A stretch of DNA of 64,000 nucleotides from Tubulanus polymorphus. Lineage: Eukaryota; Animalia; Nemertea. Position 1 is the stretch's first letter. Every line of letters begins with the position of its first letter. Made by a program: the position numbers and the translations under genes. Positions 5,453-38,100 of this stretch are shown here, piece by piece. Under the pieces are notes generated by a model. It ran no database searches, was not told the origin of the DNA, and saw nothing but the letters and a program-made list of their open reading frames with translations. The stretch covers positions 17,380,110-17,444,109 of the forward strand of contig NC_134030.1 of NCBI RefSeq assembly GCF_964204645.1, read 5' to 3'.

Positions 5453-5715
5453 GTACTTAACCCTCAGGCATCTCACCTTGCAGGCTGATTGTACTGTACC
5501 CTCAGTCATCTCCCTTTACAGACATATTGTACTATATCATCGGTCATCTCTCTTTACAGACTGATTGTACTTAACCCTAAGACATCTCACCTTGCAGACT
5601 GATTGTACTGTACCCTCGGTCATCTCTCCTTACAGGCTGATTGTATTGAACCCTGAGTGGTCTCCCATTGCATACTGATTGTACTGTGGCCCCACTTATC
5701 TCTCCTTACAGACAG
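5453..5715. repeat. ~38-bp minisatellite, ~7 units
   Basis: Unit cagactgattgtactgtaccctcggtcatctctcctta. Confidence 0.9.
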
Positions 5716-5749
5716 ATGTGCTAGACACATTATAATCAACTAAACTATG

Positions 5750-12003: not shown

Positions 12004-15000
12004 TTATTTTGAATTAAATTCCAGAGGACTGATGTTGCCTATGGAACGCTTATAAACCTTTTTCGAGGTTTCAACATCAACAACACGAATTAATCCATCT
12101 TTTCCTGGATAGACCGATTTGATTTCTCCCAATTTCCACTGCCGCCTTGGAAGATCCTTATCGATAACTAACACAATATCTTCGTTCGCAATGTTCTGAT
12201 TTGGAGACAACCATTTCTTTCTCGCGCTCAACTGGGGTAGAATCTCTTGGATCCACCTACCCCAAAACTGACGAACGACTTCCTGACTATGTCGCCACTG
12301 TTACGCAAATTGAACGGAATGCAGTCTACACTACTCGGCGCAGTATCTCCGCTGTCTCGTCCCACGATAAAATGATTTGGTGTCAACATAGGTTCATTTA
12401 TATCTTGACCAACCAACGGTCTCGAGTTCATTAGTCCTTCAACTAACGTAACGACTGTACGAAACTGCTCATCGTTTAATTCGCTACCTCCGATTATTGC
12501 TTTTATCGAACGCTTTGTGGCTTTAATCATTGTTTCAAATACACCACCGAAATATGGACTAACAGGTGGATTCCAAATCCAGTTTACTCCGTTATTCGCT
12601 AAGTTATTCGATATCTTATCTTGATCAAGACTATAAAGACAATCGACGAGCTCCTTCAACTCTGATTCTCCTGAAACGAAACTTCCACCGTTATCTGATA
12701 AGCATCTTTTAGGCCACCCACGCCTTGCCGCAAATCTTGAGAATGCGCAAAGGAACGAATCTGTATCCAGGCTATCAGTAGCTTCGAGATGTACCGCTCT
12801 GACTTGCAGATCGACCATCAAAAGGAGGTATCTTTTCGCCCTAGTACGACCTCTGCCCATCTTAACTGAAAACGGACCCGCGAAATCCAGACCGATTTCT
12901 GAAAACACATTCCATGATGGGTTTACTCGAATACTAGGCAGAGGAGCCATCTGTTGACTGAGACGCTTCTTTCGTAACCATCTAAGACAATACGCACAGC
13001 TGTTTAGGATTTTCTTAACCGCAGTCGACCCTTGTAAAATCAGAGATTTTCTACGAAGAGTGTTAAGAATATGTACTGGTCCAACACTATGTGCAGTATC
13101 ATCATGTGCCTGTACTATCAAAAGTCTTGTAATGTCACTCGACTTTGACAGAATTATCGGAAATTTTGTTTCTTCCGGTAATAATTCGCATCTTTCGACT
13201 CTCGTTCGCGATCGAAGAACTCCATTTTCGTCCAGGTATGGGTTCAACCCTGCGATTTTACTACTGAGTAATACATGTTTCTTCTTTTCTAATGCTACTA
13301 TTTCTTCACTGAAAGCTTCTCTTTGACCTACTTTCACTAACTCTACCTCCGCTGCTTTCAGTTCATCAGGAGACAATACACGATCATTATTTCTGCTCGA
13401 CTTACACGTTTTACAGTTCAATACAAATCGCTTAACCCACGCATAAATTCGAACCAGCGAAAACTTTCCTGTCCAGGATATACCACCGTTTTGTACGGGT
13501 AACCGTCTAGACCATCGACTAGGTTTCAAACTCCACACAAATTCATCGAGTGGAATATTCGTCATCGAATCATCATTTTCTTTGCGATTTTCTGTATTTT
13601 CGACATTTAAATCCAACGCACGAATCATAAACCCAGTAGGTTTTTCTGTGTCTGGATTTTCGACTGTTTCATGAGTAATATAATCCCTCCAATCTTTACG
13701 AATTTCATCCATTGCTTTGGATGATATTTTGATCTCTGTTTCTGGCCACGAGTCTGAGTTATCACATAGAAATTGTGGTCCGTGCCACCATAACTCTTCA
13801 TCTTTCAACCGAACTATACTGCAGCCTCTTGACGCGACATCTGCCGGATTACAGCTTGTTGGTACGTATCTCCACTGAGACGGAGAGGTAACTTCATGAA
13901 TTTTACCAACACGATTTGAAACAAAAGTCTTGTAGCTTCGACTTTCTCCTCCTAACCAGAACAAAACATCATAAGAGTCGCTCCAGAAAGTAGCTTCTTC
14001 TATTGGTAATTTCATACTTTACTTACTCGTCTTGTCAACTGCATACCAATTTCCGCAGCCATTAACTCTAGCTTAGGAATTGAAATACTCTTTGTTGGAG
14101 CCAACTTCGATTTTGCAGTAACTAGCGTGACAGTAACTGAACCATCTTCATATGTAGTTAACTGATACACTGCTGTGGAGTAAGCTCTAATCGAAGCATC
14201 ACCGAATGTATGTAAAGTCACCGATTTTACATCTTTTCGAGTCTTCAAACATCTTGGTATGTGGAGACATGAGATCAATGACAAATCTTCACACCACAAT
14301 TTCCATTTCTGACGTAATTGTGACGTAAGAATCTCATCCCATTCGAGTCCTTTCAGCCAAATTTCTTGCAGAATGATTTTCGCTTCAAGGACTTTAGGTG
14401 CTATAAGTCCCATTGGGTCAAATATCCGAGCGATATAACTGAGAACTTCACGTTTCGTTATACTGTCGTGGTATTCTGGTACGTTAACTTGATATTCAAA
14501 TGTGTCTGATTCTGCTTTCCAGTAGACACCCAGAACTTTGGTTTTTGGCAATACATTGTCTTGAATCTTCAATCTATCGGATTCCGGAATTTCTTCTAAG
14601 ACAGTTCTGTCATTTGACATCCATTTTCTATAATGAAATCCTCCATCTGTAGCCAAAGCCGTTAACTGTTGTCTGGTGGCTATGGCAACATCTGGGTCAT
14701 CCATTGAACAAATGGTGTCATCCATGTATGTTTTCGAATCAACTGCATCAGCTGCAAGGGGAAAACTTCTTTCTTCATTTTCGCATGAGTCTGCCATACA
14801 TACTGAGCACAGCAAGGAGAGTATGTTCCACCGAATACATGCCTTTTAAATTCATAGACTTCAATTTCACCGGATATCTGATTTTTCCAGAGATATCTAT
14901 GATACTTTCGATCTTCTGGCTTCATTTCTATTTGCAATACATCTGTGAAAGATCTGCACCCATAGCTTTGAGTCCACTTCTGAATGGACCTTTGAATTCG

Positions 15001-17322
15001 ATATAATCTTTGGTCAGGTATTCTGCGATTGTTTCCTCATACGATTTTTTGATGTCCGGATTGGAATCAATTTTCTTCATTAATAATTTAAGTCTGTTCA
15101 ACGCTACTGACTGATTATTTTCCAGATAGGGACTTTCATCCTTCCAAGGAACGCCAATTTCATAACGCTTGCCGTCGAACTTCAACGATTGCTCAAGCTT
15201 TTTCTGAGCTATTTCTTCGTCAACAGATAATTTGGATCTTGATTCATCGAGACCCGATTTTTCTTTCTCCCAAAACGCTTTTAGGGTAGAATCTAACGAA
15301 ATTTCTTCTTCATTCGGATTTTCACGATTAGCCAAAATCGTTTGACAGATTACATGAGTCTGTTTCTTCACGTTATGTGACTGATTTACATTGTCACCGA
15401 TACACGTCCAACCGAACGGACAAAGACGAGCGATTGGATCCGACGGATTTGGACCGCATATTTCTTTCAAACAGTACAGTAGATGTCTACAATCTTTTCC
15501 AAGTATTCCCTCAACTGTAGAATTAACACTAACATCTGGAAAGGGTATACCTTGTAGATGTGTCCACCGATTACGTATCTTCGACCATGCAATCGACACC
15601 ATACTGTCACAAACGTTATCCACTACGTAAAATCGCTGCGTGGCTAAGATTCTATCTGAACCGTTGTAATGTCTTATGTTTACATCACAAACTTTCGATT
15701 TCGTTGAAATTTCCGAACCATCGAATACTTTAACCGTCAAAGTTTCATTGTTATATTTCAAATTACGCATATGCGATACAGCGTGAGTACTGAGGTAACT
15801 AATGTCACTGCAATCATCTAGAAGAACTATTATCTGACGTTTATCATGACCATCACCAATATAGATAGGAAGAGTTCTCATTCCAACGTTCACTGAACTA
15901 TCTATAGCATATATCTGCTTCGCCATAAACGAACCATTCTTTTTTACGTCAGTTTCTAATGACGACTGGCTAGTTTCTTGATCTGTAGTTTCATCATCTT
16001 TATTTTCCCGATCATAAATTTCTGATTTCTTAAACTTCGGTCGATGCAACATCGAACTGTGTGTTAGAGTACAGCCAGATACTCCACACTGTCGTCTACT
16101 ATTACAATCCGAACCACGGTGATACGGACGTAAACATCGAAAACATAAACCAAGCCTTTTTGCAGTAGTCCAACGTTCATTTTTCATCTTTCGGAAACGG
16201 TCGCATTTTACTTCAGTGTGTTCCATTCCACACACGCTACATTTTACTGAATTACCCACGAAGGTACCACTACGTTTATTCGGTAATTTTCTATCAACAG
16301 TCTTCGAATCATTCGATACTCCATGAAGACCCTTAACTGCTTCACGAGCTTTCACCTTTCGCGCAACGACTTCTGAAAAACCATTCACTTAAGGAAGCAA
16401 GACCTTCGTCACATGATCTCGAGCTTAACCAGTCATAGTACTGTACAAGCAATATCTCAGGAATCTTTCGAGATACGATGCTATACCAAGCACCATCGCC
16501 GAGATCATCACCTTTTCCTCCAGCTTTCAATTTTGCTACTGCAACGACGAGATTATCCGACAATTTTTCTAATTTGTCGATATCATAAACTGACGGCTTT
16601 TCTGACTTTTCCAATTCATCTAAATATCCCTGTAGTTTCCTTCGTTCACCACCAAAAATCTGAACGAGTAACTTTTTTGCCGCTTCGTATTCCTCTAAGC
16701 TATAACCGAAACCCTTTATGGTATCAATAGCTTTTCCTTTCAACGAGTTCATCAACCGTAGCATTTTATTAGCTGCTGGTTCATCTGTACTGTCAACTAC
16801 GTTCACGAAGGCCATCCAGTAACTGTCGAATGTCAACTTATTTCCATCAAATACAGGAACTTTTATGCGTTCAAGTTTGGAAACAGCTGCCGTAACCGAC
16901 GATTCATCTTCTTCAAGGCTAATTCTCTTTCTTGGAGTGGACGTTTTCTTTTTACTCGTGTCATTAGATTCATTGACCGAACGATTCAATAACAGAGAGC
17001 GAGCCTTTTCTATTTCATATTCTGTTGAATTAAAAACCTCTTCTGCTTCAGCTTGAATATTCTGAACGCCTTTACTGTTATTTTCTGTTAAGTGGAGTTG
17101 TTCTAACTCATCTAGTACTGACAGGACTAAATCTCTTTTCTCATGAATATTGTCTATTATTTCTAATACGTGACTACCATCAGTATCTTCTTTACTTTCT
17201 AAGACCTTTGCTGTCAATTTTGTTAGGAGTCTACTCAAAGTGCTTTTTTCTATTTTCTTAAGCTTTTTCAGCTCACCTAAACCACGTTTTGAAGTATTTC
17301 CGGTTGCATCAACATCAGCCAT
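12004..17322 (-). pseudogene. BEL/Pao gag-pol polyprotein (DUF1759-type gag, three Cys/His knuckles, protease, partly deleted RT, Pao RNaseH, integrase), broken by several frameshifts
   Basis: CFRCL..H..C and C.V.GC...H..MLH; LLDDCS; YMDD; IFDPMG, TFGDAS, AKSKLAP, SIPKLELMAA; WSDS, NPADVASRG; GLDFAGP, SDNG, GGVFE. Confidence 0.95.
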
Positions 17323-17433
17323 GATTGCGAAATATTGTCAGCAGTTACTGAAGTCTAATTATCTGATGTTAATACTTGCTCTTTCTGATGTTCTATTTCT
17401 ATTTCATGAGCCAGCTTTACAGTTTTCTTGTGT

Positions 17434-17451
17434 TCCCGGGTTTCGGCACCA
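17434..17451 (-). promoter_or_regulatory. Primer binding site, tRNA-Phe (BEL element)
   Basis: TGGTGCCGAAACCCGGGA = complement of the 3' 18 nt of eukaryotic tRNA-Phe(GAA). Confidence 0.95.
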
Positions 17452-20400: not shown

Positions 20401-21074
20401 GAGATATTCCTCTCACTCGAGAATAATAATAACACTTCTCGTGGATCTAAGTTTCTTTCTTTATTCTGCCAATACAATTCTTATTCCTTCCTACCCTACA
20501 GCTCGTATCTTAAGCTTCTCCACCACTCTCGCTCTCAACCCCCTTACTGTGCTGACCCTCCCTTTTTATACCATTTCATGTTACTCACGACGTATACTTC
20601 TACATAGCTCGGTATTGATCCGCAGCTGAATTGTACTTTCAAAAAGATCAAACGATTTGTATACGTAGGTTTCTTGGCATGGTCCTGGGAGAACACACGC
20701 ATTGTTCCTTATGTACGATAATACATTATCCGCCTTAATGGTTGTTTGTCTGAAACATTTATACTTGTATCAGACGAACATTCTAAATCACTTTGAAGGT
20801 AATCACGGCGCTGTAGTCATGAGAAGAATTCGTGGAAATGAGCAATTATGAAATCAACTTATGAAACACTCGCTGACCCTTAGTCTGATAATTCGATAAT
20901 AAGGAGTAATATTAAAGAGTAATATTAAAAAGTAATATTAAAGAGTTTTATTATTTTAATTAATAAGAGTTTGTGTGTTTAAATTTGTATGTACTAATAA
21001 TGATAAAGAATATAAATAAGAAAGATGATATTTCGGCTTACATTGTATATTACTATTTAGACAAAATTAAATAC

Positions 21075-22353
21075 TGATCCGCGGCAAGATTCCGTAGTAA
21101 CTAAAAAATGTTTGTAATGTTGGTTTTTGTTTGCGTTGGTGGTTTCTTTGTGGGTATCAGACAACAAACGATGTAGTCTAAAATTGTGCAAGTTGTTGTT
21201 TGATGCTTCGATCTATCAGTGCTGACAATAAATCAGCCTGGTGCAAAAATAATTCTTTCTCGGTTCTTGTGCTGCGATATCTGGCAAACATTCAGAATCA
21301 TTTTTAAACTTAAGAATAGACGGAACCGTAATTGGTTGGGTCGGAACAATGAGGTGCTTTGATAATGTGGTTTGTGCAGGGATCTCGCTGTTACTTCTTG
21401 ATACTCCCGACTACTTTCTATAAAAGGAAGAACCGGAAGTATAGGAAGACATTGTTGTTTTGCTTTATCCTGTATTATAATAGAATTAGTTAAATTATAA
21501 ATGAAAATTGGTATTATAAGTATAGAATGATTTTAGATTTGATAATTAATTACATTGTATTTCTGAATCAAAAGTTTACTATTGTTAATTGGAAAAAGAA
21601 ACGATGAGTTTGTTCCATAATCTAGGTGAAAACTAAGTTTTGAAAATATATCTAAATTAAGTATCCTGGATGTTAATTAAGGACAAGACCTTTATAATCG
21701 CTTAAGTTTTATGGAAGTTTAATTGTGGCAAATATCAATACTAGCTCTCTAAAGTTTCTGTTGGTGTACATGTCTGTTGGTAACTCGTAGAGAATAGCTG
21801 CTCTCTCAACAATGATAAGCAAGGAGTGAGTAAATCAAAGCGCGTCATGACAGGAGGGTTGAAAAGAAAAGTTACTTTGGCAAATCAGTTTCTCAAATAA
21901 TTTTAGATTAGCGAATCATTAAGGCTAATTCTACATGTCCAAAACCGTCATGACAGCTAGGTTGCTGCTCCTTGCCAAAAGTCGAACGGGAGAGTCGGCA
22001 TTCTAGGAATGCCGATCTTTTCTATAAAAGAGGCCCGCAGTCTTGAGAAAGCAGACCTACTAGGGACGCTCGTTAAGATACTTGAGATTTGGGTTGAAAT
22101 ACCAGAATTAAGACGGGTTACCAACAGTAGTGTACAATAGGAATTTAGAGTTAGGAATTGGACTGTGTGCTATCTGGAGATATTACTATTATCAAGGTAA
22201 ATAAAATCTATTTTATTTTTATTATATTCAATCAGAATTTCGGCATTTTAGTTTGATTATTTGGGTTTGTGCACGGACACGTTCTCTCGCCAGGGACCGA
22301 TCTTTACGTTTTTATATTCAACGATTAAGGAGAGGATTGTGACCGGTGTATCA
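21075..22353 (+). repeat. 5' LTR of family A copy 2
   Basis: Direct repeat of 28973-30251. Confidence 0.97.
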
Positions 22354-22354
22354 T

Positions 22355-22372
22355 TGGTGCCGAAACCCGGGA
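22355..22372 (+). promoter_or_regulatory. Primer binding site, tRNA-Phe
   Basis: TGGTGCCGAAACCCGGGA, 1 nt after the LTR end. Confidence 0.95.
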
Positions 22373-22430
22373 AATCAATAATCTTCGGTTTACGATAAAC
22401 TTTTTACATTAATTGTTTAGTTTTGTTCAA

Positions 22431-22958
22431 ATGGTACATATTTCCGTATGCTCCCACTGTGGTGCGAGGAACGCATTCTCTAAGAAGCGCCGCACTACAA
22501 CCAACTCAACATACGAAAAGAAATTGTGGGGGTCGAACCCACCTAATACCAAACCGTTTGAAATTCCGGTCGAGTTTCGGGAACCATTGTGGGATTTGAA
22601 CCCACTGCCCCCTCCGGTCGACCCTGTTGAGACACTGCGGGATTCGAACCCCAGAGGTGCACAGCCATTTGAGATCCCGGAAGAGTATCGGGAGCCGTTG
22701 TGGGATTCGAACCCACTGCTGACTTTGGCCGTATCTGCTGAGCCTTTACGGGATTCTAACCCGACCGCCACACAGCGCGAAGCTTCGATCACCTCGAGGG
22801 ATTCGAACCCTCTCGAACGCCGGCAAAGGGTAAAGCCAGTGAAAGTGCCCGAGAAATTCGACCCATTTTGGGCACATTTCTTTCGCGATTTTGCAAACCC
22901 GGCCGAGTTGTTCTTTGGTGATAAAGACGCTGACGGCTATTTCCTTTGTCCAGCATAG
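22431..22958 (+). CDS. Accessory ORF1: CxxC + six (W/R)DSNP repeats + conserved aromatic C-terminus
   Basis: Open frame from ATG 22431; C-terminus FWAHFF.DFANPAELFFGDKDADGYFLCP is also present in copy 1 (~4735-4825). Confidence 0.6.
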   Translation: MVHISVCSHCGARNAFSKKRRTTTNSTYEKKLWGSNPPNTKPFEIPVEFREPLWDLNPLPPPVDPVETLRDSNPRGAQPFEIPEEYREPLWDSNPLLTLAVSAEPLRDSNPTATQREASITSRDSNPLERRQRVKPVKVPEKFDPFWAHFFRDFANPAELFFGDKDADGYFLCPA

Positions 22959-23052
22959 ACTAAGGGGGTCTTATAGTACCAGTCAATTGTTAACTTTATG
23001 ATTGCCTGATTGTTATTTGTGGAAAATATTTTGTGTTGTTTGTGATTGATAC

Positions 23053-23493
23053 ATGTCAGCTGGGTTGAGGTGTGGTTACTGTGGGGCAACGGTTTACAAG
23101 ACGCACACGCTTGCCCCAGTCCCCAAGTCTAGTTGGGAGGTACCAGCTCATTTAAGGGAGCCACTGTGGGATTCGAACCCACTCAGCACCAAGGGTACCA
23201 CTAACAACAGAGCTGCTGAACAGCCACTGTGGGATTCGAACCCACTTAGCATCAAGGGTATTACCAACGACAGAGCTGTTGAACAGCCACTGTGGGATTC
23301 AAACCCACTCAGCACAAAGGGTACCAATAACGACGGAGCGGTCGGACAGACTCTGAGGGATTCGAACCCTCCACCCAGCGGGCTTAATATTTATACGTCT
23401 ACCTGGGATCAGGGGGATTTCAGTTTATGTGCTATCCCTGACCACAACGTATTGTTGGCTGATAAGTCGCGAATATACAGCTACTTTGATTAA
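23053..23493 (+). CDS. Accessory ORF2: CxxC + four (W/R)DSNP repeats (63-bp period), paralog of ORF1
   Basis: ORF track; N-terminus conserved in copy 1 (MSVGLKCGHCGATVYKTHTLAPVPKSTWEVPAHLREPLWDSNP). Confidence 0.65.
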   Translation: MSAGLRCGYCGATVYKTHTLAPVPKSSWEVPAHLREPLWDSNPLSTKGTTNNRAAEQPLWDSNPLSIKGITNDRAVEQPLWDSNPLSTKGTNNDGAVGQTLRDSNPPPSGLNIYTSTWDQGDFSLCAIPDHNVLLADKSRIYSYFD

Positions 23494-23585
23494 ATTGGGG
23501 TTATTTATTTAAATTATAATAAGCAATTAAACTCGAATTGTATAATTTTCTTTTTGGTGATTATTATTTGTAAGTTAGTACGTTA

Positions 23586-24407
23586 ATGTCGGGGTCAATT
23601 ACGGTGAGGTGCACAAACAAACGTCGTAGCACTGGTTATTGGAGTACACTACCCCGAAAAAGGTGTCTCACTACTGTGAGTATAGCACCCGCAACACCTA
23701 CCATCACAACTGCTTCCCCTGGGACCAGTGCTGGGACTCCAACTTCTCAGTCTTCAGACTTTGACTTTTTGGATAGTTGTTTGTATTGTGAGGGCCCAAC
23801 GTTAGCGGTTTTTCAGGACCAGGTAAATTGTACTTGCTCGTTTTCAGTGACCCCTTCTCCGCCCCTAAGTCCTTCGGGTACGGATTCGATCCGAGATAGC
23901 TCGATACGGACTGGTGAACCTTTCACACGGCCGCCGTCATCAGCTGGATCAACCGGTTCCAGCGACTCAAGCTTTTCGTGCTGTTGTTCGGTGCCGCCTG
24001 GTTCACCTATAGGGTTTGATCAGTTCGACTTAGAGCAACCGGCAGACCTGTCTGCAACTCGATCTTTAAACAGACCATTAGCAATTGTTACGCCTGTAGC
24101 GGGCCAACTGTTGGGCGGACATTTGGGCGCACCTGTCCAAAGTTTTCCACTAGACCTGTCCTTAGGTGCGTCTGCGGTTGACCAACCGTTGGATCTGTCG
24201 CCCAGCGGGGGTTTAGGCCGATTTTCGGAAAGTCAGTCTGCCCTTGGCCCTTGCACCTCGTGGACTTTTGAGGAGATTGATGACATTCTTTCGTCATTTT
24301 TAAGGGAAGAGTTTACGGTGGAGGAGGTTGCCCGTACTTGGGAAAACCTACTTTGTTGGGCTGATCGCCAGGATCAGGTTTGGAATTTAAAAGTAGCATC
24401 ATCGTAG
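23586..24407 (+). CDS. Accessory ORF3: S/P/T-rich protein with three PxDLS motifs and an acidic C-terminal helix
   Basis: 273-aa ORF; PADLS, PLDLS, PLDLS; homolog in copy 1 (3380-4179). Confidence 0.7.
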   Translation: MSGSITVRCTNKRRSTGYWSTLPRKRCLTTVSIAPATPTITTASPGTSAGTPTSQSSDFDFLDSCLYCEGPTLAVFQDQVNCTCSFSVTPSPPLSPSGTDSIRDSSIRTGEPFTRPPSSAGSTGSSDSSFSCCCSVPPGSPIGFDQFDLEQPADLSATRSLNRPLAIVTPVAGQLLGGHLGAPVQSFPLDLSLGASAVDQPLDLSPSGGLGRFSESQSALGPCTSWTFEEIDDILSSFLREEFTVEEVARTWENLLCWADRQDQVWNLKVASS

Positions 24408-24441
24408 GGATAATAATAATTTGATTACTCTGGTTTAGAAA

Positions 24442-25539
24442 ATGGCAACTAGAAGCGGGACAACATACGGGTCGGACGATGCGGGTGGCTTGCAGGGGCA
24501 AACCTCTACAGGAGGGAACCCACAGGGTCACCCCCCAATTAGCAATGACACGGTTTTAGAGGCCCTCTCGGGCTTACGCGAACAGGTGGACACGGCCACC
24601 GCGTTTATGAACTTCTCCATGCTCCCGAAATTTACAGGACGAGACAGTCAGTGCGTCTCTGATTGGTTCAGAGGGTTCAATCGTTTGGCCGATCTGAGAG
24701 GCTGGGACAAAAATGCCAAAAAGAAACAGTTAGATTGGTTTTTGGCTGGCCCAGCCCTAGTTCTATTCAATGACCTCCGCATTGATCAGGCGACCGATTC
24801 GACCGGCACAAAAATTACCACTCCCTGGGAAAATATTGTCCGTGCGTTTTGCGCGCAATTTAGCCCTACCTCGTGGGCTTTGGACAAGGAGTCGGCTTTG
24901 ACGACGATGCGACAGGGGGAGACACAACCGGTCGATAGGTTTGCGGAAGAGATTGATCGTGTGGCCTCGAGTTTGAAATTTTCGGACCACCAGAAAAATA
25001 TGTTACTAATTAACAACTCACGCCCTGACATCTCTGTCTACCTGTTGTCACAGCGTCCGACGACATTTAGGGATGCATGGGAGGCAGCCAGAATGGCGGA
25101 GCATATCGAACAACGTAAAGCTCTGTCGTCTCCCAAGGTATCGCAAATTGGGACCGAACCAAATAAAGCGATGGGTGACGTTATGGCTGAATTACGGGAC
25201 ATGTTCCGCCAAATTATGGACATCCAGAAGTCTACCCGTACTCAGCGGAATGATAGAGCCACATTTTATAGCGAAAGCCGCCCGTCACAAAGGTCACAAG
25301 ATGGCCAGGTGGTGTGCTTTCAATGTCACGCCCCTGGTCATTACGCCAGGAATTGCCCGACGTGGCGTTACGACCAACAAAGGTCACCAAACCGGGACGC
25401 ATTTCAGCGTGATAATCGCCGTCCCCAAAATGCTAGTAGGGGTCACTTTCGGTCACAGAATCTTGGGCGTGATTCCCAGCGGGTTAATCGAACATTTGGC
25501 CATGGAAACGACCGGAGACCTCATCCTATGGACCGATAA
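24442..25539 (+). CDS. gag: Gag (Gypsy-type capsid + CCHC zinc knuckle)
   Basis: LPKFTG..SDWFRGF..A...GW....KK..L...L.G.A; MRQGETQPVDRF; CFQCHAPGHYARNC. Confidence 0.93.
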   Translation: MATRSGTTYGSDDAGGLQGQTSTGGNPQGHPPISNDTVLEALSGLREQVDTATAFMNFSMLPKFTGRDSQCVSDWFRGFNRLADLRGWDKNAKKKQLDWFLAGPALVLFNDLRIDQATDSTGTKITTPWENIVRAFCAQFSPTSWALDKESALTTMRQGETQPVDRFAEEIDRVASSLKFSDHQKNMLLINNSRPDISVYLLSQRPTTFRDAWEAARMAEHIEQRKALSSPKVSQIGTEPNKAMGDVMAELRDMFRQIMDIQKSTRTQRNDRATFYSESRPSQRSQDGQVVCFQCHAPGHYARNCPTWRYDQQRSPNRDAFQRDNRRPQNASRGHFRSQNLGRDSQRVNRTFGHGNDRRPHPMDR

Positions 25540-25549
25540 GGGTGGGGTC
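25503..25549 (+). promoter_or_regulatory. Predicted -1 ribosomal frameshift cassette
   Basis: T GGA AAC (GGGAAAC in the other copies), 7-nt spacer, 11-bp stem 25517-25549. Confidence 0.7.
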
Positions 25550-25672
25550 ACGCAATGAATGGTCAACTGAGCCCTCGCCGGACTCGTTAATAAGGAGTGA
25601 TTATTGGTGGGATGACACATATTCGGGTTATCATAGTTATGATGATGACAGTCCGGTAATTGATGATTATAT

Positions 25673-25716
<44 letters not shown>

Positions 25717-26759
25717 ATTATTATTTAGAGGACGATAGGGATGATATATTTGACATGTCATTTGATCAGGGCGACATGCTAGCTGACTCATTTTCTCTTT
25801 ATTTTGAACCTGAGGGGAACTGTAATGCAGATTACTTAGATGACACTGAACCTTTACATTTAGATAAGTTTATTGATTATCACACTCCTTCATGGGGTGC
25901 CGATGACGTTTATGACATTCAAGATCGTAACTTTGGGGATAGCTGGAGGGACAATTCTCAGTTGTCGTTAGATGGAAATTTTTATATGGATCAGGGATCC
26001 AATTTTGAGGACATCTGGAAGGACAATTCCCAGTTGTCGGCTACTTACGGGCATATAAATAGACACAGGAGGGTTACGTTTAGCGATCCGGTTAAATTGC
26101 AGGAGGTACGTGCTGATATGGCGTGCTCAGGTGACAATATTTGTATTGATAGGTCACACCCTAGAGGGGTTAATGGTCCGACGGATTCGGCAGAAGATGA
26201 CCTTTTTAGAGATAGGAAGTCTCATTTAGATTGTCACGAAGGCGCTTTTGATCAGTATAGGTACCCAGCAACCTCCGAATCAGCAATACAATGTGATCTT
26301 GTGTCATCAGATTCAAGTAGTAGTAATAATTCACGATCGGAATGTCTTAATGATCAGAGTAATATGGAAACTATTTTGTCAAAGATATCTAGTCAGGAGT
26401 CAATGTCGGAGAATTTGTGTCACTCGTTTGAAAGAGGACAGAACTTTCCTGTCACCTCAAATGCCAGCAGTTTTCACCATCCAGTTAGGGATGGCATGTC
26501 CCATGAACAGGACAGAGGTCAAGTTGTCCTCACGTCTAAACCGAATATGCAAATCAACGAAAAGGTTGGGATAGGAGATTCGAACTCCGATTGTCAACCA
26601 ACTGTTCACTGTCAGGAACAATTTCCACCTGTTACGATGACTTTAGGTAACACGTCAACCAACGACATAGGGTCCTTTTCCAGTCAGAACAACACTATTG
26701 GACAGGAGGCTTATTCCCCGTCAAATCATGGCAACTGCCGCCAACCGAGTGACTGGTAG
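25542..26759 (+). CDS. Acidic, low-complexity ORF with a poly-Asp (GAT)n tract, in the -1 frame of gag
   Basis: 405-aa ORF; homologs at 43699-44820 and ~7080-7330. Confidence 0.7.
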
Positions 26760-27519
26760 TCATTCAGGGACACCGTTAAACATTTTGATTGATACGGGTG
26801 CCGATATTTCTGTAGTGTCAAACAATTACTTCATCAATCATCCTCAGATATCGAATGGCCCTTTGCAGGAGGGACAATTTCAGTCCGCCCGTGGGGTAGA
26901 TGGTACTAAGTTTTATTTAAAAGGTGTTATTTCCGTAGATTTTGTATTAGGAAATTTGGACGTGTCACATTCTATGTACGTGGTGGATGGAGTCACCTCG
27001 GACTTCATTCTCGGAGTTGATTTCCTGGAACGAAACCAGGCAGTTATCGATTATGCTAAAAAGGCTCTCTTGTTGCCAGGCGCCGACATAATTTACTTTA
27101 GTAATGATGTCATCTTGGGGAAATCTTCGTCGGTTAAAGTCACGCGTATGACTGTTATTCCCCCTTCATGCGATGTCACCGTAGACCGTAAGTGGTTAAT
27201 TGACAAGTCTCAGTCATCGATTGCAGCCTTTGAGCCTGTACATGATTTGAGAATGCGTGATCGCATGAGCGCAAGGTCAGTTGTTAGCGTCATGCCATCA
27301 AGGCATCGGTTTCGAGTCACGAACCCTACGTCACGACACGTCACCCTCTTTGAAGATACGTGTCGTAGTGATTCGTGGACAGATGGGTGGTCACTTGACC
27401 GATCACTCAAAACAGAGGCGAAGTCAGGACAGCTTCCTCGGCCACCGGAGGTGTCTATCACACATGTGGAAGACCCTCAGACGTCAGACAAAATTTGTAA
27501 GTATAATCGAATTATTTAG
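26698..27519 (+). CDS. Retropepsin aspartic protease plus linker; no downstream RT
   Basis: LIDTGADISV and DFILGVDFL motifs. Confidence 0.9.
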   Translation: MDRRLIPRQIMATAANRVTGSHSGTPLNILIDTGADISVVSNNYFINHPQISNGPLQEGQFQSARGVDGTKFYLKGVISVDFVLGNLDVSHSMYVVDGVTSDFILGVDFLERNQAVIDYAKKALLLPGADIIYFSNDVILGKSSSVKVTRMTVIPPSCDVTVDRKWLIDKSQSSIAAFEPVHDLRMRDRMSARSVVSVMPSRHRFRVTNPTSRHVTLFEDTCRSDSWTDGWSLDRSLKTEAKSGQLPRPPEVSITHVEDPQTSDKICKYNRII

Positions 27520-28972
27520 AGTTTGGATCAAGATGCATACGTCCTATTGAAAATTATGAATTGTATACGGTAAGCGTCTCTTCAGTAAGTTATCGAAATA
27601 TAATTACTTAAGTGTTGTAAAACTGAAGTATATATAACGCATTGTTGCCAATGAGTTAACTCCTGATCTGGGTTTAATCTAATACAGGAGATAAAGACAA
27701 CTATAAATAAAAGTGAATAATAGCTTGATTGTCGTGATATTGGTTTTTTTTTGCTGAAATATCACTAGTCTCTAGGGTTTATTATCTGTAGTCTGAATGG
27801 ATGTCATTAATTGTCAGTTAGAAAAGAAAGAGTTATGATATGTTTGAATAATCTCTGTATTATTATGATATTAATTGTAGGATACCCGTATCGGATGTGT
27901 TGGAATGAGACCGCCGAAGATACGATAGCACTTAGATGGAAGAATGCCTTCTTCTGTCAACCGCAATAGATGTTGATGGGTACCCCCCTGATAGTGACCA
28001 TATGGAGATGGGGACTTGTTGGGAGGTATCCTGAAACTCTATTCGATGCAACTGATAGTTGAAAAACCAGCAACTGGTATGCTCTGGCCGAGATGGGTGA
28101 TATTAATTCACCGATTCGTCAATTAACGAGGAAAAAGGAACAACTATATACAGCCTACAACAACGATCTAGGGCGTTGCCGTTTCAACGGGATGGAATTA
28201 TGCTCGATGATTAGTCATGCGATTCTGGCCATTGTTAGTGGTGTTTGTCACTCTCGAAGACCTGTTATATACTCACAAACTTAAGTGATGAAGGGTGGAC
28301 AAAGACACCTGGCCAATGCGATACGAAATATGAAGAAAAGTGATAATTTCCGTAGACATTTTAGCGGAGTAAAGCCGAGTGTGTTCAAGATGGCTCCCGT
28401 GTAGTTACATTAACATTCGATGGAATGTTGTTCGCTCAAGCCGTAAGATGCGAATACATTACTGTTCCGTTTCTATATTAACTGTGGAGAAAAGACTCCG
28501 ATATAGTAACCGTAGTACTATAGCGTCTATGAATAGCGAGCATTTGCCGTACTATCAACGTAGCAGTACGCGCTGCGAGGAACTGCGGTGGATGACGTCA
28601 TTCGTCCGTCCATGACGTACTTTGTTGTGTCTGGTAGCTGTTGCGTCACTTCGCGGTAAATTCTAAACTCAAACTGTGAACTGTTTTGTGCTTAACTTTC
28701 GACTGTTTAGTGTGCGGGGACAGCGGTCTCGAATGAACTTTTTTCCGATTGGGTATCCAGAACTTTAAATGCGGTTTTATGATAAACTATATCCTGAACT
28801 TTAATACGCGTTTGTTGTGTTGAACTTTTAAACAGTTACTCGTTGCATGAATTGTTTTTTTTTGTAATTGATGTTCTTTTTCAGGATCTGTCTAGGGAAG
28901 TTTCAGCGCGATTTTCATGAGTCAGTCTAAATTCAAAATTTCGGGACGAAATTTAAGCTGGATGGGGAGTGA

Positions 28973-30251
28973 TGATCCGCAGCAAGATTCCGTAGTAACT
29001 AAAAAATGTTTGTAATGTTGGTTTTTGTTTGCGTTGGTGGTTTCTTTATGGGTATCAGACAACAAACGATGTAGTCTAAAATTGTGCAAGTTGTTGTTTG
29101 ATGCTTTGATCTATCAGCGCTGACAATAAATCAGCCTGGTGCAAAAATAATTCTTTCTCGGTTCTTGTGCTGCGATATCTGGCAAACATTCAGAATCATT
29201 TTTAAACTTAAGAATAGACGGAACCGTAATTGGTTGGGTCGGAACAATGAGGTGCTTTGATAATGTGGTTTGTGCAGGGATCTCGCTGTTACTTCTTGAT
29301 ACTCCCGACTACTTTCTATAAAAGGAAGAACCGGAGGTATAGGAAGACATTGTTGTTTTGCTTTATCCTGTATTATAATAGAATTAGTTAAATTATAAAT
29401 GAAAATTGGTATAATAAGTATAGAATGATTTTAGATTTGATAATTAATTACATTGTATTTCTGAATCAAAAGTTTACTATTGTTAATTGGAAAAAGAAAC
29501 GATGAGTTTGTTCCATAATCTAGGTGAAAACTAAGTTTTGAAAATATATCTAAATTAAGTATCCTGGATGTTAATTAAGGACAAGACCTTCATAATCGCT
29601 TAAGTTTTATGGAAGTTTAATTGTGGCAAATATCAATACTAGCTCTCTAAAGTTTCTGTTGGTGTACATGTCTGTTGGTAACTCGTAGAGAATAGCTGCT
29701 CTCTCAACAATGATAAGCAAGGAGTGAGTAAATCGAAGCGCGTCATGACAGGAGGGTTGAAAAGAAAAGTTACTTTGGCAAATCAGTTTCTCAAATAATT
29801 TTAGATTAGCGAATCATTAAGGCTAATTCTACATGTCCAAAACCGTCATGACAGCTAGGTTGCTGCTCCTTGCCAAAAGTCGAACGGGAGAGTCGGCATT
29901 CTAGGAATGCCGATCTTTTCTATAAAAGAGGCCCGCAGTCTTGAGAAAGCAGACCTACTAGGGACGCTCGTTAAGATACTTGAGATTTGGGTTGAAATAC
30001 CAGAATTAAGACGGGTTACCAACAGTAGTGTACAATAGGAATTTAGAGTTAGGAATTGGACTGTGTGCTATCTGGAGATATTACTATTATCAAGGTAAAT
30101 AAAATCTATTTTATTATTATTATATTCAATCAGAATTTCGGCATTTTAGTTTGATTATTTGGGTTTGTGCACGGACACGTTCTCTCGCCAGGGACCGATC
30201 TTTACGTTTTTATATTCAACGATTAAGGAGAGGATTGTGACCGGTGTATCA
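28973..30251 (+). repeat. 3' LTR of family A copy 2
   Basis: Direct repeat of the 5' LTR, followed by TSD ATAC. Confidence 0.97.
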
Positions 30252-30328
30252 ATACCATTCATTGTGGGAATTGTAATCATTGGATAAGTTAAAATAAATG
30301 AGTTCGAGGGTTGGAAAAATAGTATATA

Positions 30329-30884
30329 TGTAATCTCTTCGGTGCGGTTGAGAAGGGGAGCAGACCGGCAGGTATCATGACGTCGAGGGTCGGGTTAAAG
30401 TTAGCAGCGAATGAAAAGTCTAGGAATCAGGACCCCGGCTCTGCGTCGTGGTGCTGCGTTGGTTGCTCGTTCCCTTTTACGGCTGGCCGCAAGCAGGGTT
30501 CTGGATTTTTCTTGGGTGTGGACGCAGCCGTATAAAAGGGGCCGCACCTCGAGAGAGAGCGGACTCTTTTAGAAAGCATTTTCAGGGGAAGCATTAGAAG
30601 ACTATAGAACAGATAACTTTCGGCTATCCGGTTGAATTGCATCTTCTTGTGTGCGGGATTTGTAACAAAATTCTAATTAAAAGGTAGGGAATTTTATAAA
30701 TTGTTGAGACTATAGTTCAGCTAAAATTGTAGAATTAAAGTTGAGTATTATCATATTCAAATCCGGAGTTCCTTTTATTCCTTGGTTTTCGGGTTTCTGT
30801 GTTCGTGGTCGACTTTCTCGCCAGGGACCGGAGTTTGTAATAGAGGAAAAAGACAATAGAGATAGGGACCGCGGAACAGTATCA
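30329..30884 (+). mobile_element. Probable solo LTR of another family
   Basis: TGTAA...GTATCA; TATAAAAGGGG box; CTCGCCAGGGACCG U5 motif shared with family A; no TSD seen. Confidence 0.55.
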
Positions 30885-31370: not shown

Positions 31371-34184
31371 AATATAGCTGCTAAGCAGCGATGACGGGTT
31401 TTCTGCAGAGCCATTCAGAATGATGGGAATTGTAGTAAATTGAAATGCCGATACATAGAATGAAATGCATTGACAGATTCGAACCTAATATGCAACCACT
31501 GTGTAAAAGGTCAAATATGATTCAGCTTTGAAACCGAACATACGCGGGCGTACAATCAACAAATATGAATTTATTTGACCAGGCATTTTTTTGGCATTCA
31601 AACATCATGATACTGTTTTATCACCATGCTTAACTAAGGGTCCAGGGACACCATGCCCACTTGGGAAGTGGTTTCAAATGCTCAACAATCTAACAATTTC
31701 GATATTCAACGCCCCCTGGTGACCATATACAAAAACAAATGACCTTGAAACTCACCACAATCATAGAACATGTCATATGCAACGATTTTGTAATTGATTG
31801 TGATAACAAAATATTCTCGTTACCAATTTAGTATGGTAATACTAAGTTATTCTACAATTCAACGCCCCCTGGTGCCCATATTCAAAACCCAATGACCTTG
31901 AAACTCGCCACAATCATAGAACATGCCATGAACTACAACTTTGCAATTGATGATGTTAACAAAATATGCCTAGGCACCAATATAATAAGGAAATAAGTTA
32001 TTCTACTATTCAATGCCCCCCCCCTGGTGACCATATAGAATAACTAATGTCGTTTGAACAGACCACAATCATAGGCGATGTCATGAGCTACAACTTTGCA
32101 ATTGATTGTGGTAACAAAATATGCATTGGTACAAATATAATATAGAAATACTAAGATATTATATTATTCAACGCCCCTTGGTGGCCATATAAAAACACTA
32201 ATGACCTTGAAACTCACCACAATCATAGAAAACCTTATAATCTACAACTTTCTAATTCATTGCGGTACCAAATATGCTAAGGTATCAATATAATGTCGAA
32301 AAACTTTTTCCCACCGAATGAGTACCGATAACACCAAGATGGCCGCCAATTGCGTCATAATTGGCTGATCAAATATACCTACCTCAGGTATAAACCATCC
32401 CTTTCCAAAGAATACCCATCAGCAATTGCAATGACAAATGGCAAATCAGTAGGAAGCTAGAGGACTCAGAATTCGGACCTAAATTGACAATTTTGGGCAC
32501 TAAAAAGGTCATAGGACGGCCATCTGTAGTCCGATCGACCCACTTTTGTTATTCTTATGGGCCCTGGGGAGATTCAAATATATAGGAAAGATCAAGGTAA
32601 TTGATCAAAGCGTCTTCAAAATTTCCCTCAAAAAGTTCAAAAACGTATAAAAAGTGCTGATTTTGGCAAACAACAATGGCTGCCAGTCGGCCATCTTGAT
32701 TCTGACAGGGCCAGTTTTTGGACTGAAGATGTGTCTAAGGTAGATACATGTGTAACCCAAATATCAAGACTTTACATAGAAGCGTCTTCAAAACTTCCCA
32801 AAATAACTGGATTCCGTCTACGGACGGACGTACGACGGACGAAAATTGAACGCAATAGCTCGTTGGGACTAAAGTCCCATGTGGGCTAAAAATGGATCTG
32901 TCCTATTATGAACTCATCTTTAGCACCTGCTGAGTCGATAGATTGAGTGAATTTACAGATAAAAACGTATTATGATTTGGAATAGATTTAAGAAGATAAT
33001 CTATTTATTGAAATATTTGAATAAATACATATATTGTAGTGTAGATTCAATCAATAAATTATGAATGGATTTGGTCTGGGTTTCCGCCTGATGTTGATTT
33101 TGGCCTTTATGGAATTACAAATTCTAAAGTGATAAACAATTTATACCTGCAACATGTGTGTAAATCAAACCTATCCCACTAGTTGCGTGTGTTTCCTAAT
33201 AAACGGGAGAGTTACTCTTGATCTGAGTTATTAGAAAAATAATGTTCATATATTTATAGAAATTTATTGCCTTTTTGAAAATTCTATAATAATATTTGTT
33301 CTGTCCTAATTTTTATGACCGTATGAACCAATGATATGCTATGTAAATATGATGTAATAAAATAAATTTGAATTTGAATTAAATTTGAATATGAGAATCA
33401 AGCATAACTTGTGTCTTTTCAACTTGTCTTACTTGTCTCTTGTTAACAGTTCCAGAGTTTCGATTACAATCAAATCCAAATTGGCTAAAAAGTATATAAG
33501 ACTAAATGAAATGAACTGTTAGTCACCGCAAAGGTTATGGCTGTTCGAATATCACGGATACCGGATACCGGACACCTAAATACCGGATACCGGATATTCG
33601 AGATTGCGGAGTATATAGCGCATCGGGTCTAAGGAGTCATTTTTTCAAAAGTAAAACGCCCCCCTGGTGGGTGAACGGGGTCTCCAATCAAAGATCCTTA
33701 GACTTACCTTGAGGTACCTGTGTTCCGTACAACTCACAAAAGTTTCAAGTAAATCCGTCAGGGAATATTGTAATGCTAGCAGAATATAGTCATCCAGGCT
33801 CTCGCGTATAGATAGCTGCATTCATTAGCTCTATCTAGGGAAGTTACTGCAAGGATGCTATTGCTTGTATGCGGCATAAACAAGGCTATAAAAATTCCTC
33901 AGTTGCGTTCACTCGAGACTGGCCACATTCAGTGCGCCTCATATATAGTAGCATAGATAAAAAATACTAAAAAACTACAGATCTAGTACACAGCTCTATC
34001 ACTGCTTATGGGACACTGGCACAAACACACGTACTGACGCGCTGTGGGAATGACACATAGGCAATACACATATGTAGATGCATATCGGGCTTAAATTTCG
34101 ATGTTTAGAGGCTCACAGTGAGTAAACAGTGAAAGTAAGTTGCAGTTGTTTATATCCTTTCAGTAAGATCCAGTGTGAAAAAGA

Positions 34185-35186: not shown

Positions 35187-38100
35187 ATGGAAGGACAAAA
35201 CTCAACAGGTTATGGGCCCAGGGCACCAGCTGGACGCTATGGTCGACTTTATTACGATGGGGATGAAAGAAAATACGAACAATGGGAGGCAAAGTTTTTG
35301 GCTTAAATGAAAATACAAAAACTTAAAGCGGTAATTACCCAAGAAGCGGAAATTGATGATACGGACCTGGATTTAGTCGACAAAAATGAACAGGCGTACG
35401 CAGAACTCATACAGCTACTTGACGACAGGAGTCTGAGCCTGGTAATGCGTGAAGCTGCAGATGACAGTCGAAAAGCATTAGCGATTCTGCGACGTCATTA
35501 CCAAAATGAGGGAAAACCGAGGATCATTTCTCTTTATACGGAACTGACCTCACTAGTCATGAAGCCAAGTGAAAGTGTGACGGACTATATAATCCGCGCA
35601 GAAACGGCAGCAACAGCTTTAAAAACTGCCAAGGAGAACATAAGCGATAGCTTATTAATCGCGACGGTCCTAAAAGGTTTGGCGGATAGTTATAAACCTT
35701 TTGTGGCGATAATCACGCAGAAAGACGATGCCCAAACGTTCTTGGACTTTAAAAACGCCCTCAGAAGATTTGAGGAGACCGAAAAAGCGAGGAAAGATAC
35801 GGCAGAATCATCAGATGATCATGTGATGAAAAACAGTTTCCCCGCCAAAAATGTCAAGGACAGTCAAAATAGCGGGAATAGTAGTGGCCCTAAGTGTTTC
35901 AGATGTGGAAAGATTGGGCATTACAAAAAGGACTGCTACGCAAAATATTGTTCTACATGTAAGTCCAATACCCATAGTGATGAAAATTGTCGCGCACAAA
36001 ACCGCGGGAAAAACAACGGTCGAAAAGATAGATTTCATCGAGCGAAAGATGACGCCCGATCATCAGATGACGACGGTAACGAACATTCATTCTCATTTCT
36101 ATATAAAGCTGGGTGTGATCATAGAAAAATTCCTGATGTGAAATCTCAAAATATGCACATCCCGGTGAATGAAGATGCCCTGAAATCGTGTTCGAGCCGA
36201 AAGAAGAATTCAGATGATATGTTGGTGGATTGTGGAGCTACGTCTCATATACTTACGGACTTTGGATTATTCACGAAATTTAATGAAACATTTGTGCCGG
36301 AAAAACACACAATTGAACTGGCTAATGGAGAGCGCTCAACAAATGTGGCCGAAAAATGTGGAGATGCAGTAATTAATTTGAAAAACTCTGACGGAATAAA
36401 CGTGAAATTCGAACTCAAAGATGCTCTGTATGTCCCGAGTTATTCGCAGGACATTCTATCCGTTCGCGCTGTGACAAAAGAAGGAGCAACAGTCACATTC
36501 CGTCCCGAGAATGCAAATCTCAAGTTCAAAGGTAACATTTTTAACATTCATATGTCAGATAGATTGTATTATCTTAGTAGTGTGGATCAAAATGATTGTG
36601 ATTATGTTAGCATCACTCGTGACCTTCAAAGTTGGCACGAGGTCTTAGGTCATTGTAATTATGAAGATGTAATTTCATTAGAGCATGTAGTCGATGGTAT
36701 GAAAATCAAAGGTGTCACAAAAATCCCCGATGGTTGTATTGTGTGTACTATGGGAAAGCAAACGTGTGGTCGGAGTAGAGAGGCAAGGGCTAAATCCAAA
36801 GCTCCCCTAGATTTAGTGCATACTGATTTGGCAGGGCCAATTGAACCGGTATCCACTGAGGGATTCAAGTATGCGATTTCCTTTACTGACGACTATTCAG
36901 GGGCTGTGTCTGTATATTTCCTAAAAGCAAAAAGTAACACGACTGAGGCTACGGAAAAATTCCTGGCTGACATGGCACCCTTTGGTAAGGTAAAAAGGTT
37001 GAGATCAGACAGAGGGTCAGAATTTCTGTCTAATTCATTCAAGTCACTTATGAGTAGAAATCGCATAAGACACGATACCAGCGCCCCCTATAGTCCTCAT
37101 CAAAATGGTGTTAGTGAAAGGCATTGGAGAACACTATTCTCTATGGGTAGATGCCTGTTATTTCAGTCTGAGCTGCCAAAAGAAATGTGGCCGTATGCAG
37201 TTATGGCGGCAGGTTATATTAGATACAGGTGCTACAATAACCGGTTGAAAAAGACACCATTTCAAGCAGTCACAGGTAGAAAACCTAATGTGTCAAATAT
37301 GCAATCTTTTGGGTGCAGGTGTTTTGCCTACCAACAAAAGAAAACCAAGTTAGACTCAAGATGTGTTGAAGGTATTTTTGTAGGATATGATAAAAACAGC
37401 CCATCATATCCGGTGTATTTTCCTGAGACAAACAAAGTTCTGAGGTACAGGGTTGCGAAGTTTCACACCAAGAAGTTTGTAGAACAACAAACACAAACAG
37501 GTGCACATGATGATGATGTTTCTTTATGTGAGTTTCCAATAATCAAATCTGACACAAATAGCAGCTCAAATGGTTCCAAAGTTCAACCACAATTAACAAC
37601 TGTCAGTAACCAAGGGACCAGTAACTCACATGATGAAACTGATGAGTCGAGATACCCCAGGCGTAAGAGAAAGCCTCCTGCTTATCTCAATGACTATATA
37701 AGTGATTCAGATTTAGAAAGTTCATGTAACGATGACCATATGTTATTTGTATCGGACTCAAATGTAGATTATTTGTGTAAGACTAAAGTTCACCCTGTGA
37801 ACTATAGTGAGGCAATAGCATCCCCTGAGGCACAGCAGTGGCACGAGGCAATGAAGGAAGAGATTAAATCCTTAAAAGAGAATGACACATACTCTTTATG
37901 TAAATTGCCAGAGGGTAAACATGCTGTGGGGGGTAGATGGGTTTACACAGTCAAAACAAAACCTGATGGATCAGAGCTGTATAAGGCAAGATATGTAGCC
38001 AAGGGCTATAGTCAAATTGAAGGGGTTGATTACAAGGAGACTTTTTCTCCTACTGCTAAACTCACATCTGTTAGAATCCTTATACAATTAGCAGCTCAAA

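Follow-up and report, generated by a model that had tools for sequence, protein, structure and literature searches.

How does a long terminal repeat (LTR) retrotransposon that encodes no reverse transcriptase (RT) come to be present as a family of copies? The question is raised by an element at positions 21075-30251 (9,177 bp, + strand) of a 64,000-nucleotide stretch of the genome of the nemertean Tubulanus polymorphus (NC_134030.1, positions 17,380,110 to 17,444,109), the whole of which was analysed and is referred to as the window. The element belongs to a Gypsy-derived, recently active family that includes a recent insertion lacking RT, RNase H and integrase (the Pol-less form). This structure has inserted independently and exists in many copies, and selection acts on its gag gene and on an upstream gene, ORF1. 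The explanation that we regard as probable is that the family is a multi-copy Gypsy derivative with gag and a shortened pol, spreading via its own Gag particles and a borrowed RT and integrase. The features of the focal element are as follows.

21071 to 21074 and 30252 to 30255: left and right target-site duplication (TSD), ATAC
21075 to 22353, +: 5' LTR, with a TATA-like site at 22023
22355 to 22372, +: primer-binding site (PBS), which we take to be tRNA-Phe-like
22431 to 22958, +: open reading frame (ORF) 1, 175 amino acids (aa)
23053 to 23493, +: ORF2, 146 aa
23586 to 24407, +: ORF3, 273 aa
24442 to 25539, +: gag, 365 aa, with Retrotrans_gag and zf-CCHC
25503 to 25549, +: predicted -1 frameshift signal, a slippery heptamer with a downstream stem
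25488 to 26756, +: acidic frame of 423 open codons in the -1 frame of gag, the pre-protease spacer
26728 to 27519, +: retropepsin protease and a beta-rich post-protease domain
27520 to 28959, +: 3' non-coding region, without RT, RNase H or integrase remnant and without codon signal
28960 to 28969, +: polypurine tract (PPT), just ahead of the 3' LTR
28973 to 30251, +: 3' LTR

The original prediction, made from the letters of this DNA, described near-identical LTRs, a TSD, a PBS and a PPT, and all four are present. The two LTRs are 1,279 bp each and align without gaps at 1,270 identities (0.7% apart), with termini TGAT..ATCA; ATAC flanks the element, the PBS starts at 22355 and the PPT occupies 28960-28969. 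A donor-like splice motif overlaps an AATAAA at about 22195-22205 in the 5' LTR and is present in all five LTRs examined. The six + strand ORFs follow one another in the predicted order, ORF1-ORF2-ORF3-gag-acidic frame-protease. Pfam recognises Gag, by Retrotrans_gag and zf-CCHC, and the last ORF, by five aspartyl-protease families; ORF1-3 and the acidic ORF give no significant match. Because a tblastn search of the 64-kb window with a full Gypsy pol (P0001, E ≤ 1) matches the focal protease alone, no remnant of RT, RNase H or integrase is detectable, as had been claimed. The likening of the element to a complex retrovirus went too far, since it has no env gene: no sense ORF of more than 93 codons starts downstream of the protease region. 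The element shares with autonomous Ty3/Gypsy members the TG..CA LTR ends, TSD, PBS, PPT, Gypsy-type Gag and retropepsin and lacks their protease-RT-RNase H-integrase series; on its sequence it is classed as Gypsy derived and not as an autonomous Gypsy member.

Other members of the family in the window are the following.

40863 to 48165, +: copy 3, older, decayed and Pol-less, with TSD CTAG
2295 to 5452, -: copy A, a decayed partial copy with part of ORF1, ORF2, ORF3 and gag
7071 to 8019, -: copy B, a diverged fragment with the gag C-terminus and the start of the acidic frame
59213 to 60267, -: lone family LTR, with no matching TSD seen

Copy 3 had been described as having a different TSD, diverged LTRs and the same layout as the focal copy. 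The first two points stand, its LTRs being 4.6% apart (Kimura two-parameter distance) versus 0.7% in the focal copy, and so does the shared gag-acidic-protease-3' layout, which includes the end of the protease ORF and the 3' region. The likeness does not extend to the leader, which in copy 3 is a PBS-gag interval of only about 500 bp that is unrelated to the focal leader and does not contain ORF1-3. With two TSDs (ATAC and CTAG), two LTR ages and the same protease end, the Pol-less structure transposed as such, as had been proposed. Tandem arrays of 38 bp (5453-5717 and 8018-8285) directly adjoin copies A and B.

The abundance of the Pol-less form was gauged by depth in a raw whole-genome shotgun run, X5, that carries the same species label (about 12% of its reads, likeness of at least 88%). 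Mean depth over selected bins, which omit the low bins (a skipped repeat; 27624-27924) and two flanking transition bins, was 300 at the gag C-terminus, 260 in the acidic region, 197 in the protease and 226 in the 3' region. A total of 336 X5 reads exit the LTR end into mixed flanks (agreement 0.42). The passage from the protease end to the 3' region is spanned by contigs and reads (X3 record 15, 27110-28056; X1 record 8); runs X1-X4 come from a single study that may include the window's own source and so are not independent of it. The even depth, the mixed-flank reads and the contigs that bridge the protease end together show that the Pol-less form is a multi-copy family and the majority form, and gag and protease without RT, RNase H or integrase are constant across copies, as in the plant elements known as TR-GAG or GAG-PROT. 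The original prediction had named a majority of copies with full pol as the finding that would overturn it; what was found is a sister lineage that, if autonomous, makes up about one-third of the protease-bearing depth, short of a majority.

Coding capacity was assessed by comparing synonymous changes between the focal element and decayed copy A with those expected under a null that takes account of the type of base change and of CpG context; none of the controls, four wrong frames and six non-coding nulls, reached significance. In gag, 88 of 140 changes are synonymous against 41.6 expected (P = 2e-12), strong purifying selection that supports the prediction of a Gag of its own. Word-index homologue searches, an insensitive method that provides no evidence of novelty, returned nothing among 2,647 candidates for gag and one weak match only for the protease. 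A Protein Data Bank sequence search with gag gave zinc-knuckle matches only, and gag had no match in viral contigs.

The acidic frame, in which aspartate and glutamate make up 20% of residues, is open from stop to stop over 423 codons (25488-26756), an openness that composition would yield with a chance of 7e-13, and, lying in the -1 frame, it begins before gag has ended. Within the overlap, and in phase with gag, is a slippery heptamer whose sequence is degenerate in the focal copy but canonical in all 318 covering reads as well as in copies 3 and B. A stem starts 7 nt 3' of the heptamer in both full copies (fold z-score, 0.09 in the focal copy and -2.38 in copy 3). The acidic frame is likely reached from gag by this predicted -1 frameshift. 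The acidic region and the protease form two separate frames in both window copies, with the focal break near 26720-26730; at this junction a different length is found in 234 of 270 reads and in the contigs from each of the three assembled runs, and in P0002, the closest relative (53% identical), a single frame spans the matching residues. Among 150 protease relatives, 37 extend into RT and 19 have at least 80 residues ahead of the protease. The focal protease clades with P0007 and P0090 (FastTree support, 0.924), both full-length pols of metazoan Gypsy type, and the proposed Gypsy ancestry is thereby upheld. These two share with the focal element the post-protease domain and a long acidic N-extension (182 and 285 aa, respectively) and differ in continuing into RT, RNase H and integrase; a comparison of spacers made with P0090 only detected no sequence similarity, and the composition is alike. 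What had been proposed as an acidic substitute for Pol is, by these alignments and frames, the pre-protease spacer of a shortened pol, an extension that full pols of the same clade also carry, and it would be in the same frame as the protease in most copies. An LxCxE-like motif, presumably Rb binding, occurs in the acidic frame of both full copies (26226, +; 44293, +), with a chance of about 0.04 calculated post hoc.

The DTG of the protease is intact and its retropepsin model is confident (predicted local distance difference test [pLDDT] of 79.6), whereas a single-sequence fold of the protease ORF reached a pLDDT of only 29. The post-protease domain (about 27120-27380) is found in 87 of the 150 relatives and is modelled as all-beta; there is a hint of a dUTPase-like fold, derived from the model of the whole protease ORF rather than of the isolated domain. 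In the viral Foldseek search, three dUTPases stood low in the list (E values of 6.5e-4 to 1.6e-3), besides a badnavirus polyprotein. The RT region of RT-bearing relatives starts 39-148 residues past this domain, and the focal frame ends about 50 residues past it. The simplest reading is that gag would be followed, through a -1 frameshift, by a spacer-protease-post-protease polypeptide cut in the linker before RT.

Where the missing enzymes might come from is suggested by a second lineage, which appears at 80% likeness. X3 record 14 has 85 differences from 26725-27165 (about 81% identical) and a depth of 38 versus 80 for the main form, and a like contig in X1 has a depth of 261. This lineage shares spacer and protease with the focal family. 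Its X1 and X3 contigs depart from the alignment at 27482, twelve codons ahead of the focal stop, into at least 255 and 57 other letters. The point of departure may be where an autonomous version would continue toward RT, making the lineage a candidate helper. The focal element itself seems to be inserted in a sister-family LTR (20616-21070 and 30256-30884) that has the same first and last bases and a U5 motif in common with it. This flanking LTR, for which no surrounding TSD was found, may belong to a related lineage, since 18 reads connect an LTR of this type to the internal 3' end of the family.

The three ORFs between PBS and gag are islands of 51-53% GC among U-rich spacers of 21-32% GC. 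In ORF1, 25 of 50 changes are synonymous against 15.2 expected (P = 0.0022). The ratio of non-synonymous to synonymous rates (dN/dS) of ORF1 is 0.20 (p = 2.6e-5) once the hairpins described below are removed, and its last 30 codons hold seven synonymous changes and one non-synonymous change. An antisense open frame shares the third positions of ORF1; of the two, the sense frame alone has a start codon together with a stop that copy A retains. ORF1 is thus well supported, by its pattern of substitution, as a real extra gene under purifying selection. It has an N-terminal CxxC, [WR]DSNP repeats and a conserved C-terminus, and no usable match in the ESM Atlas. ORF2 carries CxxC and REPLWDSNP repeats and, at its end in both the focal copy and copy A, a polyA-type hexamer. 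The similarity between the two (E value of 2e-13) comes mostly from the repeats, and they are probably paralogues. The reading frame is kept at five of six ORF1/ORF2 rearrangement joints with known inserted length (joints drawn from 12 of 46 rows); at one in three the chance of this is about 0.02 if the joints are independent, which they are not fully. None of ORF1-3 has a hydrophobic helix (maximum 19-residue hydropathy of 0.25, 0.43 and 1.14, respectively) and, for want of a transmembrane helix, they are not fusogens of the sORF2 or FAST type. Raw Nei-Gojobori dN/dS, at 0.62 for ORF3 and 0.67 for the acidic frame, was discarded as evidence because non-coding nulls gave 0.50-0.93; the mutation-matched test took its place.

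ORF3 is Ser/Pro/Thr rich and contains three PxDLS motifs, PADLS, PLDLS and PLDLS, at 24039, 24147 and 24186. None of 20,000 shuffles reached three (mean, 0.024), and six of the seven PxDLS motifs in a six-frame translation of the window fall in ORF3 of the focal copy and copy A. All three are kept in copy A, and they differ from one another at silent positions. In the available portion of the source, PXDLS is the CtBP-binding motif of E1A, EBNA3C and Meq (PMC11209466), and CtBP is described, in the part of a second report at hand, as suppressing canonical transposon transcription in Drosophila (PMC7061269). That ORF3 is a real CtBP-binding protein is, on its motifs, about evenly balanced, and the host-modulating cargo of the original prediction would depend on this motif.

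The DNA that encodes the WDSNP repeats has a second property, in that it forms a 5-bp stem and a 7-nt loop that, read on the antisense strand, correspond to a tRNA T-arm (B box).

22526 to 23373, -: ten 17-nt hairpins, identical or close to the tRNA T-arm (B box), within ORF1 and ORF2

Allowing one mismatch, the B-box motif has 27 matches in the window versus 1.0 expected; 22 of these lie in three leaders, and 21 of the 22 are antisense. The copy 3 leader has five hairpin units at spacings of 62, 62 and 60 and no open ORF, together with 3.3 tandem 31-bp repeats (42122-42224), each headed by a PBS-like sequence. Pairing at position 4 of the stem is seen in 18 of the 23 units (T-A in 13, A-T in 4 and C-G in 1; permutation p = 0.00025). 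No whole tRNA is present in the leaders, where the T-arm alone matches; an ARAGORN tRNA-Arg call at 42338-42438 was rejected as an artefact of two hairpins, with no Rfam tRNA match near the cut-off, and a nominal A-box result of 0.0095 is confounded by adjacent hairpin arms. The tandem pattern had no match in viral contigs. In metagenome contigs the tandem 17-mer was found at 43 loci, of which none was related to the focal element by tblastn and 27 overlap ARAGORN tRNA-Leu/Ser/Thr genes on the opposite strand. Three metagenome contigs (L015, L027 and L035) carry four to seven tandem T-arm motifs with no ARAGORN tRNA call and are unrelated to the element.

Retroviral packaging signals are located between the PBS and gag. 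Ty3 and Ty1 pair with the T-arm of the primer tRNA outside the simple PBS, according to the accessible part of the source (PMC5371799). Given this pairing and the place of the array between PBS and gag, a role in RNA is favored over one as a TFIIIC insulator; by analogy the array might, at low confidence, act in tRNA capture or in dimerisation via its palindromic loop.

A mechanism that joins these parts would begin with the 5' LTR driving RNA polymerase II transcription. Gag would be translated, some ribosomes would shift -1 into the spacer-protease frame, and the element's own protease could mature the particles. Helper Gag-Pol would co-assemble, a tRNA would prime at the PBS, and the helper integrase would insert the product, leaving a 4-bp TSD. 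Among the weakest steps, the swappable leader of this subfamily would supply a set of accessory proteins, namely a pair of repeat proteins headed by CxxC (ORF1 and ORF2) and a protein (ORF3) that would bind CtBP via its three PxDLS motifs, likely blunting CtBP-dependent repression of LTR promoters. Also among the weakest, the antisense T-arm hairpins would most likely serve in the RNA as extra tRNA-pairing or dimerisation/packaging signals that aid competition for primer and helper enzymes. Taken whole, as a satellite element with its own matured particles, the RT and integrase of a sister lineage and an exchangeable counter-silencing leader comprising an E1A-like CtBP-binder and two repeat paralogues, whose coding repeats would also serve as antisense T-arm hairpins for primer-tRNA capture or packaging, the mechanism is tentative and on balance doubtful.

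A number of results weigh against the explanation preferred here. The excess of synonymous changes is borderline in ORF2 (8 of 14 against 4.8 expected; P = 0.056) and absent in ORF3 (30 of 91 against 27.8; P = 0.34), so that the neutral evolution of accessory ORFs that the original prediction had proposed to look for by dN/dS is contradicted for ORF1 only. Selection on the acidic frame gave P values of 0.28 versus copy 3 and 0.028 versus copy B, and that on the protease gave P = 0.083; the tests of ORF2, ORF3, the acidic frame and the protease had little power because decayed copies were compared. The focal copy itself has damage at two recoding points, and sister contigs followed as far as their divergence at 27482 showed no RT-bearing partner. 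Depth over ORF1-3 is about 50 versus 197-300 elsewhere (roughly one-fifth, with diverged leaders uncounted at a likeness of at least 88%), and copy 3 moved without an ORF1-3 leader; the leader is therefore exchangeable and dispensable for movement, and ORF1-3 constitute a subfamily cassette. An insensitive word-index search of 1,607 candidates found no ORF3 homologue, and its three PxDLS motifs could be a single chance motif (about 0.02 expected) multiplied by local DNA duplication. The hairpin units are likewise duplicated, so that the stem covariation amounts to two or three events, and the loop position that varies most (in 5 of 23 units) corresponds to an invariant B-box base and is silent in the Ser codon.

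The alternative that survives best, and falls only a little short of being probable, is that the accessory ORFs are real and were inherited from an autonomous parent, in which case they would be uninformative about a satellite lifestyle. That the sister lineage has the same acidic spacer and protease fits this alternative, as does the presence in autonomous MDG1-group elements of two translated short ORFs upstream of gag, reported in the available part of that study (10.1101/2025.03.14.642691). The gag silent-site divergence of about 45-60% from copies whose spacer is about 10% different is a sign of subfamily recombination. However, no ORF1-3 leader has been seen on an RT-bearing copy, and ORF1-3 stand in a young Pol-less insertion. 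Inheritance from a parent is compatible with the core of the explanation preferred here, a Gypsy derivative moving in its own particles with borrowed enzymes, and differs only in where the genes originated.

It is improbable that the leader is mainly a cis-acting array, of antisense B boxes serving as a TFIIIC insulator or RNA polymerase III promoter or of RNA hairpins, with ORF2 and ORF3 as by-products of GC-rich repeats in an ordinary gag/protease-only element having at most one extra gene. Of the leader features, the hairpin motif alone recurs in copy 3, where no ORF is open, and the pairing at stem position 4, the overlap of the 17-mer with tRNA genes in metagenomes and the lack of selection on ORF3 are all in keeping with such an array. 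Its difficulties are that ORF1 is constrained even with the hairpins removed, that the ORFs stand out as GC islands from the U-rich spacers, that changes in the loop frequently break the B box yet keep Ser, and that T-arms alone, and no whole tRNA, are found. Since the stem pairs and the variable base of the loop is silent for Ser, constraint seems to be present at both the protein and the structure level. That the Pol-less copies are dead derivatives, arising by independent deletions or by segmental duplication rather than retrotransposition, is very improbable: every window copy is damaged and a third or so of the protease-bearing depth comes from a lineage that continues into other sequence, but two full copies with distinct TSDs and LTR ages (0.7% and 4.6%) have the same protease end and 3' region, and reads and contigs pass from the one into the other.

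The window also contains elements of other kinds. A BEL/Pao element (12228-17451, -) has DUF1759, Peptidase_A17 and integrase, and the first 18 bases of its PBS are the same as the focal PBS; BEL/Pao elements are metazoan, as the host is. A near-complete Copia element (35307-39328, +) is split into two ORFs, and direct repeats flank it near 34974 and 39648. Sequences at 31632-32892, 53159-54438 and 55306-56285 form a repeat family that occurs in both orientations and contains 153- to 154-bp tandem arrays, and a fragment at 52657-53067 (-) has a weak DDE_Tnp_4 transposase match.

Gag/protease-only elements and short pre-gag ORFs are each already known, separately. Literature searches, covering mostly titles and the beginnings of abstracts outside Repbase, Dfam and GyDB, returned no description of this layout, of a retrotransposon protein with PxDLS or of a T-arm array in an LTR-element leader; the family may already be catalogued in repeat databases. 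The claim that gag/protease-only non-autonomous elements exist in plants holds for wheat and sugar beet families, the latter comprising 28 GAG/PROT-only families, some above the 4-kb TR-GAG size, in the available part of the report (10.64898/2026.03.01.708851). As described there, plant TR-GAG/GAG-PROT elements and wheat RLG_Quinta/RLG_Cereba likewise have LTRs, PBS, PPT, gag and protease, lack RT, RNase H and integrase, are multi-copy and have a presumed helper, and the original size limit of TR-GAG was under 4 kb, which the focal 9,177 bp exceeds (10.64898/2026.03.01.708851). The focal element differs from them in being 9.2 kb long and from an animal, with a short pol accessed by frameshifting through a 400-codon spacer and with three pre-gag ORFs. 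Its leader resembles that of Drosophila MDG1/412, whose short ORFs upstream of gag (sORF1 and sORF2) are translated; in what is accessible of that study, MDG1 differs in that its pol is complete, its sORFs measure 60-130 aa and its sORF2 is a transmembrane protein (10.1101/2025.03.14.642691). The focal ORF1-3, of 146-273 aa, without hydrophobic helix and in an element without full pol, are set beside sORF1 and sORF2 by description. In summary, the focal element resembles in its workings a TR-GAG bearing an MDG1-like leader, yet it departs from each group in a defining feature.

Other likenesses are more distant. Helenus/TRIMp3 elements are non-autonomous LTR elements with tRNA-derived sequence and, in animals, a 4-bp TSD, and the portion of the source available describes Helenus as tiny and non-coding, with A and B boxes within the LTR (PMC10886601); the focal element, in contrast, has T-arms only, which are tandem, antisense and in the internal leader inside ORFs, and a coding interior. 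Bdelloid TelKA2n and ORF3-bearing LTR elements form an animal non-autonomous family with most of pol gone and an extra ORF, which in TelKA2n, as far as the accessible text goes, is env-like and accompanied by a partly missing gag (PMC5408684); in the focal element gag is whole and the extra ORFs lie upstream. Adenovirus E1A, Epstein-Barr virus EBNA3C and Marek's disease virus Meq are DNA-virus proteins whose binding to CtBP via PLDLS is demonstrated, according to the part of the source at hand (PMC11209466), whereas ORF3 shares with them the PxDLS motif, known from sequence alone. Binding of CtBP by ORF3, if real, would mean that a retrotransposon encodes a mimic of the motif used by these viral proteins.

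Annotation that relies on domains misses RT-less elements, although the present family is multi-copy and has inserted recently. Its interest now rests on the exchangeable leader, with a supported ORF1, a likely paralogue, a candidate CtBP-binder and a T-arm array that would be dual coded and so a testable model of non-autonomous competition for primer tRNA or packaging. Should these leads fail, the element would be an animal counterpart of the plant gag/protease-only elements and of modest interest. New findings of the analysis are the three PxDLS motifs in ORF3 and the antisense T-arm arrays in the leaders.

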